NCBI RefSeq assembly: GCF_009834535.1
Contig: NC_045696.1
Coordinates: 89,158,001 to 89,222,000 of the forward strand
From: Camelus ferus
Taxonomy: Eukaryota
Direction of reading: 5' to 3'
Length of the DNA stretch: 64,000 bases
The translations under genes were made by a program, and so were the position numbers. Every line of letters begins with the position of its first letter. The stretch's first letter is position 1. The notes under the pieces were generated by a model that was given only the letters and a program-made list of their open reading frames with translations, did not search any database and was not told the DNA's origin. Of the stretch, positions 25,954 through 40,474 are shown in pieces.

Positions 25954-28900
25954 CATCCACAAAAAGCTTAGGCACACTCCAGAGTAGGATCCAGAACCTA
26001 TGGAAACTCTAACAGTCCTCAGGAAACACTGGAAACCCCGGAAGAAAAGGCAGAGCCTGTGGAAGATTTGGCAGGTGTCAGAGAGCTCCTGCAAACACCA
26101 AAAGAAATAGGAAAAAATAAATGGAGATAATGTCAACTGAAAACTTAGGAGCACACCAAAGCACAAACCAGACCCAGCAAACACCCTAAGAATCCTCACG
26201 GGAGTGCTGAGGACACCCAAATGTAACCAGAACTAATGAAAATCCTGGCTGCTCTCACAGAGATTCTGTAAACACCAGAAGAACCAGAGGAAACAACACA
26301 TGATGATAATGTTCACAGAAAGCTTAGGAACATTTGAAAGCAGAATCCAGAACCAGCAGAAAATCTAATAGGCATCGGGAGGCTGCTGAGAACACCTAAA
26401 GTAAAACCAGAACCCTGGAAGACCTGGCAGATACCCGAGAGTTCCTGCAAACACCAAAAGGACCGGAGGAATAAATAAATGGTGATGATATTCACAAAAC
26501 GCATAGGAACACTCCGAGCGCAAAGGAGAACCAGAAGAAAATCTAAGAATACTCAGGAGACTGCTGGGAACAGCAGAGGGAAACGCAGACTCCATGGAAG
26601 AATATCTGACAGGCATCAAAGAGCTTACACAAACACCAAAGGGGCAAAACAAGCAGAGAGTGGAAGCAACAAGGACTCCCTGTCCCCCCAGTGGAAATGT
26701 AGAAAAGGTGAAAGCCTCATAGGTTTAAAAGAAAGATAGTTTAGGATGCGTAAAGATCGGGCAGGACCAGTGGGAGACCCAACAGGAACCAAGGGCCCTA
26801 GTGAAAACTCCACAGCAAATTGTGGACCAGAACACAAGACAGTAAGAAACTCAGGACAGTTCCCAGGGAGAAATGTGCATCAGCTGAACTCCTGACAACA
26901 ATCAAGAGACTTCTGAGGACTTCGGTAGAAAAGACTGAGTCCACGGAAAACCCAACAGGCACCAACAGACAGAACTAAAGAAAAGGGAAATCAAAGTAGA
27001 AGACTTGGTTTCCTACAATTTGCAGAACTGTAATACAATGCAACTCTTCTCACTGACCTCAGGACAACTGCAGAGCAGATCTGTGAATCGACAGAAAACC
27101 CTGGAGGCATGAAGAAACTTGGGAAAATGTCTAAGGTACATCCAGCAGAAGATCTGGCAGACATTACGATAGTGAAGGCAGCTCTGAATTCTAAAAACTT
27201 GTTCACAGGAAACCCTTAGTAAGGATTCAGATATATCAGAGAAATTACAAGAAAACTAACCTAAAAGAAATACTACTCAAAAAAACCAAGTCATAGAAAA
27301 AAATGTTAGAACATATACAGAGTGTACATTTTTTTTTTATCAAAAGACAATGAAGAAGACCATACAAAACTTTTTTTAAAACATCAAGAGAAAGCCTGGA
27401 GCCAGAAGTTACCAGTACTATATTGTACATTAGGAACCAAGATGTACTATATTGAAACCATCAAGAAAAAAGAAAAATGCAGTTGAAGACTTCTTGGAAT
27501 GCAGACTCTTCTGGGAGAATCCAAGCAGAAGACATGATGTTTGGAAGCTGTCAACAGTGGATTTGAAGAAATGTTTGATTCAGTGATGGACCCAGAGATC
27601 TCAGTCAAGAGAACTCCTCTTGTAAGCCTTGTGGATATGAATCCAAAATAAATGCCTCTGAAATTGAAGACATGTGGCCAAAGAGCACGCAAGCTAGAGT
27701 TAGTCAAAGAACAAGATCTAACCTAAAAAAGATTTTTAAATATCTGAACATTTGCCTACTCAAAAAGGCAATGTGCGAAGAGAGATATGTGTAAAGAAAT
27801 ATGAGTTTAATTTTAAAGAAAAGCTGAGTCAGGGAATAACCCTACATCCCAGATGCAGATATAGTACTGCTACAGAACTTGAGTCTCAGTTGCTTACATC
27901 AACAGAAAAGATTCAAATAAAGGTGAAAAGAATCCTGTGAAGAGCTTCCAAGAGAAATACTCAGAAGACGGAGCTATGAAGCAGAAGACAGACTGTAACA
28001 CTGAGGGGAGAAGTAAAGCTGGTATAAAGCTACAGGAATCTGATAGCTTGGTTAGTTCATCAGGGGTTATGCTCATGTAGAAAGGTGACAAACAGTGAAA
28101 AATCTGCAAGAGGAAAGTTAAATCTACAAACGACGAGAAGATACTTTTAGGACCCAGGAAGATAATGAAAATTAATTTTGACCTGGTAAAATCTTTGGTC
28201 AATACAGAAGAGAAAATTCATACAAACTAAAACAAAACAGAAGCAAATCTGGAAGATGCTAATCTTTTGTTTAATGAAATAAATGTTGCCAACAAAGAGG
28301 CAGAAGATCAAACTGTTGACAGTTCCTCAGGTAAAATCTTGAATAATGCAGGGCGGATTCTTCAACATCAACTCAAAGCAGAATAAAAGAAAAGTTAGAG
28401 GTATCTGTTCAACCCAGTAGTCAGAGATGCTACATACAGAGGAAGTTGAAGAAGAGCCCATGTAGAAAATCCGTAAGAATGTGAAAAAAAAAAAAAATAC
28501 AGCAATCAATGGTGAATCAATTTATCTTTTAGGCCTGGAGGCTCAATACGGTCTTCCCTACAAAGACAGAAGGATGTGATCTTTAATCTAGTACAACAAA
28601 TAGAATGTCTGTGAAAAAGAATGAGAAAAGATATGACCGACACACAGGAAACCACAAAGGTGCCTGTGGAAAAGTCTAGATGCACAAAGACATAGCAGTC
28701 AATGGAGAAATAATGTGCTTCAGGTTTGGAAGCCCAAATAAGGTCAGTGCCACTACTAAGATGCAAGGGCCTAATTCTTTGCTCTTATAAACAGAGCAGA
28801 GAACACATCTTTAGGCAAAAATAGGGAGAAAAATGCTGCCGATCTGTCCAGAGAAAATCTAGGTGAGGAAGCAGTAGTCAAAGAGGTAAGTCAAGATTTA

Positions 28901-32849: not shown

Positions 32850-34560
<1,711 letters not shown>

Positions 34561-37500: not shown

Positions 37501-37974
37501 TTAAACTCCTCATTTTATGGTTTTCGTCCATTTGCAGTATGTCCTCCCTGAGCAACAGTAAATTAAGGGTTTGATGGTAAATAGCACACATTTGCATAAG
37601 TATGCCTACCTAGAAATGATTTGTGATCTGAAATAATCTACTTTGAAGTTCTTTGCAAATTGTATTTCTTTCGCCACTCATTTAATAAATATTTAATGAG
37701 GGCCCACTCTGAACTAGGCATTCTGCTCTGATCTGAAAATGCTGTGAAATCAAAACGTTCCCTGTCCTCAGGGAGCTTGCTGGGAGAGGGGAGAGAGAAC
37801 CACAGATGCTAATCAGTCAGATTAATCAATCACTAAACTCCAGACAAAGATCAATGATTATAAAGGAGAAGTTCCCCGAGTTTTTACACTGGATGTTATC
37901 TGGACTTTGGTGGGGTGGGGGTGTCAGCCAGAAAGGCCTCCATAAGAAACAGCTTCTTAGGAAAGGACAAGGCC

Positions 37975-38403
37975 TTGACACAACATTGTAAAATGATTAT
38001 AAATCAATAAAAAATGTTAAATAAATAAATAAAATAAAATACTGTTAGAATAAAAAAAAAAAAAAACCCTAGCCCTAACCCTGAACCTAAGTCTTATGGT
38101 GAACCTAGACCTAACCCTAAACCGAGCCCTAACACTGTACCTACCCATGACACTGAACCTAGACTTAAACCTGCACCTAGCCCTAACCCTGAACCTAGCC
38201 ATAACCCTGAACTTGGCCCTAAACCTGAACCTAGCCATAACGCTTCACCCAGCCCTAAACATTCAACTAGCCATAACCCTGAACCTAGACATAAGCTTGG
38301 ACCTATCTCTAACCCTAAATATAGCTCTAAACCTGAACCTAGTCCTAACCCTGCACCTAGCCCTAACCCTCAAAAAAAAAAAAAAAAAAAAAAAAGAAAG
38401 AAA
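37975..38403 (+). mobile_element. Extremely 5'-truncated young L1 (44 bp) with 3'-transduced sequence and three A-tracts
   Basis: 37975-38018 matches the reverse complement of the L1 3' end at ~1301-1345 (2 substitutions, 1 indel). TSD GAAAGG(A/C)CAAGGCC at 37961-37974 and 38404-38417. Confidence 0.85.
38067..38372 (+). repeat. Telomere-like satellite, 17 x 18 bp (consensus ACCTAG CCCTAA CCCTGA)
   Basis: Parsed by hand into 17 in-phase 18-mers with substitutions but no indels. Each 18-mer is three degenerate CCCTAA hexamers. Confidence 0.93.
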
Positions 38404-40474
38404 GAAAGGCCAAGGCCAAGAGAAAGGATGTGTTCTGGGCAGAGAAAACTTCATGGGGACCAGTTCCCGGGGCGGGAAGACCCTTCATGTGTCATCTCTC
38501 ATGCTTGGGGCAAAGCCTGGATCATTTCTGTCTTCACAGTTGGGAACCTCTTGTTCATAAGCTTTAAGTAGAGTCGAGCTATGCCTCACTGTTATTCAGT
38601 TTTAAACCAAATCTGGTTCCCTGCAGGGTCTCTAACAGGTTGTGTGAATAGAGTTACCTCCATAGACCTGCTCAGTCTTTGCTTGGAGACCAGGAGAGTT
38701 CCAGCACTGTTTCCTGTCCTCTCCACCTCCACTCGCCTGACTTAGAGCGGAGTCTGCATTTCCTTTCAACTCTGAGTTGGCAGCTGGCCGACAAAAGGCT
38801 TCTTCAAGCCAGATGCTTGAAGCAGGAGAAAAGGCAATGTGAGGTGCTTTGTGTCTTTCGTTCAAATTAGGCACAAAAGGAAATAGAAATCTTTCTCCCA
38901 TGCTTGAAGCTAGAAACAAAAGGTTGGGTACGTTCAGGCCTTGAGGAAAGAATATCTACATTTCTATTTGGCCTTTTAGCTTTTCCAAGTACGTCCGCGT
39001 GCACTGTTTTGTTTTCTCCTTATTGCATTCCTGTGAGATGGGTTGAAGTTATTATTATCCCTTTTTCCAGGTGAAGAGAGGTTGACACATTGGAATCACA
39101 GGGTAAACTGGTGGTGGTGCTGAAACTGGGATCCAAGGCTTGTGATGGGAAGCGCCTCACTGCCTCACCGACTTGGGCTGGGCCAAAGGGACCCTGGGGG
39201 CAATGCTCTTGTGTTCCCTCTGACCACTTCAGATGCACTGAGAGGCCAGTTATAAGGAAAATACAGCTGGATTCTGTTCTAGGCTCCATTCTTTACATGT
39301 GAACGGAGCTCTCCAGTGCTCATCAGTTGGCTAAAGGTCCGTGCTTGGGAAAGTAAGGATAAACTGGGTTCTGAAACACAAAATGAATATATGATATTAC
39401 TTATCGGTGACCTAACTTCTATATGTAAGTTTTCTTTATAACAAGTTTTCAGTTAATTTCTCATGGCAAACTCTCTTTTTTGAATTGCTGGAGATATAAA
39501 AATCAAACCATAAATATTATGAGATATTTGAGTGAGGCCAAGAAGATCTGAAATTAGAATTCCAGTTATATCAGCTGAATGAATTTCTTTCTCACTCCTA
39601 CTTTTTAGATGGTCAGATTGGTGAAGTTAGAATAGATCTGTCAGTAGGCTGATGTACCAGCCAAATGCTCACATGGGCAGAAAAATCACATAGCATGAAA
39701 TTACAATGAAATCACTTCATAAAGATGGAATAATTTCATAAGGTGAAACATTTTTACACTCCATTATTTTAACTTGAAACTAGTAATACACTCTTTGCCT
39801 TCCTTTCATTACAAGGGAAAATTAGTTGTTAATACCACCATCTGAATATTCTCCGTAGATTAGGGTGGAGCATGAGATGCCTGTTCTTGTTCAGAGTCCT
39901 GCCCATGTCCTTACATTTACAGGGCAGCAGGACTGGTAGCACTGACCCTGAGCTGGCCATTACCCCCACCTGGGCAGGGCTGTGGACTGTCTACCCAGCA
40001 CCCTGCTTCTAATATTAAATGGCATAGGAGAACTGTCTTCCAAGATACTTGCCTTAAAAGATTGTGAATATAGCCAAATACCCAAAATTTCCCTTGACAA
40101 TTTTCATTGTAGATTTATCCAACTATGAATTTTAAAAGAGCTTTGGGAGTATAATGTTAATTTCCTTTTCATCTTTATTCTCCACTCCTTTCCTTCCTGA
40201 ACCCTTTGCTTCAATAAATGACTGCCTGAGACAGCTGCCAAGCCCCCTGCTTTAGAGATGTTGTCCCTTCCCTTTTGCTGTACCCTCCCCCTAAGAATTA
40301 TTTTTTCCCATCTCTATAGGTCAAAACCATATAACATGCACCTCCTCTCCAATGTCACCTCTCCAAAATTTATACCACCCACCCCGAAGTCCACCCTCCC
40401 CAGCTAGAAGTCATCTCTTTCTCTCTTCTCAGAATCCCCTTAATAGCATCTCTTATATGTGGCAATTCTCATTT

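Follow-up and report, generated by a model that had tools for sequence, protein, structure and literature searches.

How did a block of telomere-like satellite come to lie in the interior of a camel chromosome? The window, i.e., the whole stretch of 64,000 nucleotides of Camelus ferus DNA that was analyzed (C1:89158001-89222000), holds such a block at positions 37959-38417, behind a fragment of an L1 element. A first-pass annotation, made from the letters alone, had read it as an L1 3' transduction built up in serial steps. We followed the locus, the satellite and its other copies through the assembly, and weighed this reading against other routes.

Anatomy of the window insertion

Each part named in the first-pass annotation was found, and in the claimed order: TSD, L1 3' end, A tail, tag, A15, satellite, A24 with two GAAA units, and the TSD again (Table 1). 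The satellite patch is there as well, at a measured length of 305 bp instead of the 306 bp first given. The structure shows a 16-bp TSD (the usual range being about 7-20 bp) preceded by TT, as at an endonuclease-type site (TT/purines), a 3' A tail and 5' truncation, as is typical of L1 target-primed insertion. The TSD core is identical at 13 of 14 positions (37961-37974 versus 38404-38417), and none of 1,264 random 14-mers of the window recurred 380-480 bp downstream at one mismatch or fewer. The L1 end is the same as the one that closes an L1 of ~7 kb at another locus, L036 (see below), and the tag likely derives from a little flanking sequence that read-through added to an L1 copy at an earlier step.

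Table 1. Parts of the insertion at window positions 37959-38417
Feature	Position	Strand	Remarks
5' TSD copy	37959..37974	+	preceded by TT, L1 endonuclease-type site; 14/16 identical to 3' copy
L1 3' end	37975..38018	+	terminal 44 bp of a young L1 with its poly(A) signal; 42 bases have 3,921 exact genome matches
First A-rich tail	38019..38040	+	patterned, 22 bp
Tag	38041..38051	+	11 bp; unique in the assembly with its A flanks; similar tags in 4-5/30 control L1 tails
Second A-tract	38052..38066	+	A15
Satellite patch	38067..38371	+	305 bp; 18-bp unit of three telomere-like hexamers; C-rich strand in insertion sense; without poly(A) signal
Terminal A-tract	38372..38403	+	A24 (38372-38395) and two GAAA units (38396-38403)
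3' TSD copy	38402..38417	+	14/16 identical to 5' copy

The locus is also present in sequencing data. Twenty of the 24 listed public runs contain 0.92-0.98 of 193 sampled locus words, as judged by word content, and the other four contain next to none. The 20 positive runs carry four organism labels and come from seven studies, and two of them may be the source. Words that touch the satellite make up 18.9% of the sampled stretch so that, if sampling was even, most of them must be present in the positive runs. An assembly artefact at this locus is thus unlikely, and the comparison with raw reads that the first-pass annotation had proposed on this point came out, at word level, in favor of a real structure.

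Regarding its neighbors, the insertion lies ~3.9 kb upstream of the start of a single 245-aa ORF (33326-34063, minus strand) in a GC-rich island, which matches Pfam DUF4719 (E 9e-124) and which we take to be C3orf80. Further away, at 26060-26601, three copies of a 179-bp period are found within an A-skewed stretch resembling old L1.

The satellite and its dispersed patches

TRF assigned the window satellite a period of 18 with 16.8 copies. Identity of the patch is 84% to the 18-bp unit and 71% to (CCCTAA)n, and exact CCCTAA hexamers account for only eight of 52, never two in tandem; the longest tandem hexamer run is one here and at most two in any of the 13 patches described below. The window patch is a telomere-like satellite and not telomere repeat. 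The earlier label "telomere-like" is loose, given the low identity to (CCCTAA)n and the lack of tandem hexamers. The 154-aa ORF that runs across the satellite was dismissed as a by-product of the repeat. A 248-nt llama repeat (supplement to PMC4053949) was considered as the same satellite and is a different sequence. The subtelomeric arrays of the assembly were likewise discarded as the satellite source, as they are built of another variant unit. Arrays of this subtelomere type and with the other unit also stand at N gaps in mid-contig on C5, C8, C12 and C17 (L024-L028, L039 and L045), and may be misplaced chromosome ends.

Within the 2.09-Gb genome (2,043 contigs, small contigs included), the 18-bp-unit satellite consists of 13 dispersed patches of 54-1,131 bp, as delimited by the patch finder, and nothing else; the first-pass annotation had overlooked this family. 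Three patches each lie on C1 and C37, and one each on C2, C7, C10, C11, C13, C19 and C20. This census is based on two pattern searches and a second DNA search, which very short or more worn patches could escape. A 29-mer with up to three mismatches gave 78 matches in 12 loci, and a degenerate 25-mer with up to two mismatches gave 118; the three C37 patches explain 18 of the latter that go beyond those listed, and three listed ones are strays in other telomere-like arrays. The window patch itself retrieved 76 matches, the best elsewhere being 76-78% identical over the patch length. A search with the longest patch revealed no further patch in the assembly, and a parent array of the satellite was found nowhere in it, the small contigs included.

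An A-rich tail follows 11 of the 13 patches (L013 is nearly tailless). By a scoring of tails and TSDs that was partly done by eye, a TSD of at least 11 bp flanks eight patches (L001, L037, L034, L005, L015, L012, L017 and L049), three have a short or worn one (L004, L006 and L013, by eye), and two have none (L036 and L035). The outer TSDs of L001 and L037 come from a separate comparison of longer reach, the null-tested range being too short for them; the null of that shorter test (maximum 21, 95th percentile 10) is inflated by L1 tails common to three loci. At L012:1396-1749 (C11:28.02 Mb), a patch and a SINE-like element sit at the same target, which is present three times, i.e., a case of endonuclease site re-use. 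Given that A-rich tails and TSDs are hallmarks of L1 target-primed insertion (10.1101/2025.02.02.635956, accessible part), most of the 13 patches were likely pasted in from RNA by the L1 copying machinery.

The same observations bear on telomerase-mediated repair, a fusion relic, local expansion and assembly artefact. Any of these would be in keeping with a unit made of telomere-like hexamers, and together they are highly improbable, considering the TSD and A tail, the lack of tandem CCCTAA, the words held by 20 data sets, and the occurrence of the 18-bp unit at 12 other loci. The first-pass annotation had set aside telomerase repair and fusion, and in this it is borne out by the TSD and A tail of the window and by those 12 loci.

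Further properties of the family bear on the kind of RNA that was copied. In insertion sense, seven patches show the C-rich strand and five the G-rich one, and one (L035) could not be oriented. None of 12 poly(A)-signal hexamer variants occurs in the last 50 satellite bases of any of the 13 patches. In pairwise comparison, the patches never exceed 90% identity over any 72 bp, and the longest exact match between two of them is no more than 35 bases, so that donors common to several patches were rejected; in a rough simulation, the probability of no overlap was at most 0.12 for three donors. Identity to the unit is lowest at L036 (80.2%) and ranges from 81.9 to 90.4% in the others. Among the changes relative to the unit across all 13 patches, C-to-A (340) exceeds C-to-T (197). 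Recurrent variants at a few positions explain part of this excess, and oxidative damage at G runs is, we presume, another possible source.

Three other loci are closer to true telomere repeat. L043 (C30:11.92 Mb), L087 (C23:15.29 Mb) and L051 (C18:16.29 Mb) hold worn (CCCTAA)n of 170-248 bp with 83-87% identity to the telomere repeat and hexamer runs of two to three. Each is followed by an A-rich tail and all show the C-rich strand; TSDs of 13-15 bp are seen by eye at L043 and L087, and a worn one at L051. These are candidates for true interstitial telomeric sequences made by L1. A genome pattern search for an A tail behind G-rich telomere repeat gave no match. Six more loci (L040, L041, L042, L044, L052 and L053) hold another type of worn telomere-like repeat, internal and 323-1,855 bp long, mostly without tail or TSD.

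L1-linked patches and the route of the satellite

Three of the 13 patches, i.e., those of the window, L037 and L036, lie behind a young L1 3' end and in the same sense, and the other ten are without any L1 end, which the first-pass annotation likewise missed. At L037, a single TSD encloses ~15 bp of L1 end with a patterned tail, then a 7-bp tag with an A-rich tract, and finally 871 bp of G-rich satellite that close with A11. L036 comprises an L1 of ~7 kb, which by reading seems to begin at the L1 5' end, with A9, a 12-bp tag and A10 behind it; the G-rich satellite that comes next is 1,131 bp long and is followed by A11. L036 has no outer TSD, and an older L1 (71% identity) adjoins it on the 3' side. 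The three loci thus agree in having several A-tracts with cargo between them and the satellite 3' of the L1, and differ in their tags. An exact-pattern genome search, which diverged relatives would escape, gave no L1-linked relative of any tag; the sole extra match, L086, was rejected as it has neither L1 nor satellite beside it. At the window and L037, the cargo lies 3' of the L1 end, in the same sense and within one TSD, as in a 3' transduction.

The L1 of L036 shows ~89% identity to young copies, as against 95-99% among these copies themselves. As its satellite is also the most worn patch, a common age of L1 and satellite fits, and the insertion events were likely spread over a long period. 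In this region (L036:830-9901, C37:51.11 Mb), the 7-kb L1 and the satellite are flanked by pieces of older L1, from the ORF2 region and from what looks like the 5' region, and there is no TSD. The insertion was possibly accompanied by a deletion of several kb.

As controls, we used the first 30 exact matches to the L1 end on C1, among which young copies are overrepresented. None has satellite after its tail. A tag with a second A-tract is seen by eye in four to five of these tails, which identifies short tags as an ordinary read-through product of this L1 family; all three L1-linked loci have one, which is an excess (p about 0.01). Among the 26 truncated control L1s, one lies in the tail of an older L1, one in a tail that we take to be SINE-like, and none in a tail of the window's L1 family. 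Three of 13 patches behind such a tail therefore compare with none of 26 (Fisher p 0.03) and, for landing in any L1 tail, with one of 26 (p 0.10). The L1 part is at most 44 bp long at two of the three L1-linked loci and at most 61 bp in two of the 30 controls, where the search pattern misses stubs under 42 bp.

We consider it very probable that the satellite was copied from RNA by the L1 machinery. That the window insertion is moreover a single retrotransposition of read-through RNA, from an L1 inside an array missing from the assembly, is our preferred account, to which we give about an even chance; the weights given here to mechanisms are matters of judgement and were not computed. The RNA template would have run from the L1 3' end through an A-tract, the tag, another A-tract and 305 satellite bases into an A tail. 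An earlier L1 copy would have gained the tag through cleavage slightly beyond its own A-tract, and tagged copies would then have inserted into the array in either orientation. Their transcripts may have entered satellite without poly(A) signals, stopped at scattered sites and been adenylated without a signal. Reverse transcription from the A tail would finally have halted 44 bp into the L1 at the window, 15 bp into it at L037 and at the L1 5' end at L036; where a patch has no L1, it would have stopped before leaving the satellite. As no two patches overlap, the account calls for many donors. The parts of this account have precedents in the accessible text of published work, as full-length L1s occur in centromeric satellite (PMC8219666), nested L1 transductions are documented (PMC10415145), and an Alu has transduced satellite (10.1101/2021.07.12.451456). 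According to the same kind of sources, transductions usually end at a poly(A) signal (10.64898/2026.05.28.728591; 10.1101/2021.07.12.451456) and those from one source tend to have common 3' ends (PMC10415145). Neither a donor L1 with this satellite as its 3' flank nor a sibling insertion was found in the assembly, which itself is without the array. Plain transduction would also not predict tags in all three L1-linked loci, unless double tails favor read-through, possibly by moving downstream processing elements out of reach.

The initial reading therefore holds in part. L1-mediated insertion with a satellite cargo agrees with the TSD, the A tail and two further loci with the same order of parts, whereas the source L1 was not found and the poly(A)-signal test failed. 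The three-step serial lineage derived from the three A-tracts was not shown: the tag with its A flanks is unique, the other tags have no L1-linked relative, the assembly contains no array or donor, and no patch has a poly(A) signal near its end. Moreover, a template jump would also produce three A-tracts, and so would a satellite insertion that reached an L1 tail later.

In a template jump, the L1 RT would prime on a free fragment of satellite RNA, copy it and switch templates at the poly(A) end of an L1 RNA; patches without L1 would come from the same events minus the jump, i.e., from mobilization in trans. We regard this as a possible but somewhat doubtful route. It would account for the copying of both strands, for 13 patches without common ends or sequence and without poly(A) signals, and for one that is nearly tailless, and a landing at the true end of an L1 RNA would retain the tag and second A-tract, as in all three cases. 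L1 is also known to mobilize non-L1 RNAs in trans, tailless ones included (PMC5110952; PMC5322556, accessible parts). However, the published L1 chimeras place the foreign RNA 5' of the L1 (10.1101/2025.02.02.635956), and we found no description of a case on the 3' side. It is, to the same tentative degree, conceivable that satellite RNAs of both strands, without poly(A) signals, served directly as germ-line substrates of the L1 RT, with about a quarter of the events jumping to an L1 RNA tail. If true, this would add a class of RNA/L1 chimeras that are the mirror image of the U6/L1 type and look like 3' transductions. Interstitial telomere-like sequence with an A tail would then have a general origin, and the patches would be fossils sampled from an unassembled or extinct array.

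Alternatively, a tagged L1 stub would have come first, and a satellite retrocopy would later have entered it where the second A-tract begins, duplicating A residues only, the outer TSD belonging to the stub alone. The junctions between tag and A-tract resemble endonuclease sites, and the letters after the A-run are identical on both satellite sides (GA at L036, G at L037), as expected from a second, A-rich duplication. Target re-use is seen at L012, and two of the 26 control L1s lie in tails of older elements. On the other hand, the tagged tails of a single young family, a rare target, would have to be hit three times independently and always at the second tract, and the shortness of two of the three L1 parts compared with the controls speaks against it as well. 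We consider two such events unlikely.

Relation to known systems and implications

Together, the 13 patches of one satellite and the three loci nearer to true telomere repeat form a small, countable set with insertion hallmarks, and L1 copying is likely a route for telomere-like DNA into chromosome interiors. Judging from the set, both strands of satellite or subtelomeric heterochromatin appear to be transcribed in the germ line and to come within reach of L1; no function of the patches is implied. With one complete assembly, it would offer a clean test between active donor L1s inside arrays and satellite RNA captured in trans. A literature search gave no account of the 18-bp-unit satellite or of dispersed A-tailed satellite retrocopies, which is weak evidence given that subscription journals and bioRxiv supplements were mostly outside its coverage.

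The patches are like L1 3' transductions, whether partnered, orphan or nested (PMC10415145; 10.64898/2026.05.28.728591), in having an L1 end, extra 3' sequence, a new A tail and one TSD, and in that copies occur both with and without the L1 part. They differ in that the cargo is satellite of both strands, with no 3' poly(A) signal, no shared ends and no source found; in addition, the patches are likely old germ-line events, whereas the transductions compared are tumor events. The window insertion thus resembles a 3' transduction, yet with a failed poly(A)-signal test and a missing source it is not a proven member.

Class 1 templated sequence insertions and tailless retropseudogenes (PMC5110952; PMC5322556) are similar in that L1 ORF2p inserts a non-L1 RNA with a TSD. 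In class 1 insertions, however, a poly(A) signal stands 10-30 nt ahead of the tail, whereas the patches have none, and satellite was filtered out of that survey (PMC5110952). The U6/L1 and other RNA/L1 chimeras (10.1101/2025.02.02.635956) also combine L1 and foreign RNA within one TSD, but with the foreign part 5' of the L1, while the satellite here is 3' of it.

Short interstitial telomeric sequences (PMC6410037; PMC9693754) likewise place telomere-like DNA at an internal site, and transposition is among their proposed origins. These are, however, TTAGGG runs usually ascribed to break repair, whereas the window patch lacks tandem hexamers, is followed by an A tail and is flanked by a TSD.

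Finally, in the human AluSx3-WaluSat case (10.1101/2021.07.12.451456), a retroelement also moved satellite to other chromosomes inside a TSD. There, a single 64-nt monomer was moved and amplified later; here, multi-unit pieces of up to 1.1 kb appear to have been taken from an existing worn array on 13 separate occasions. Satellite transduction by a retroelement has been published before.
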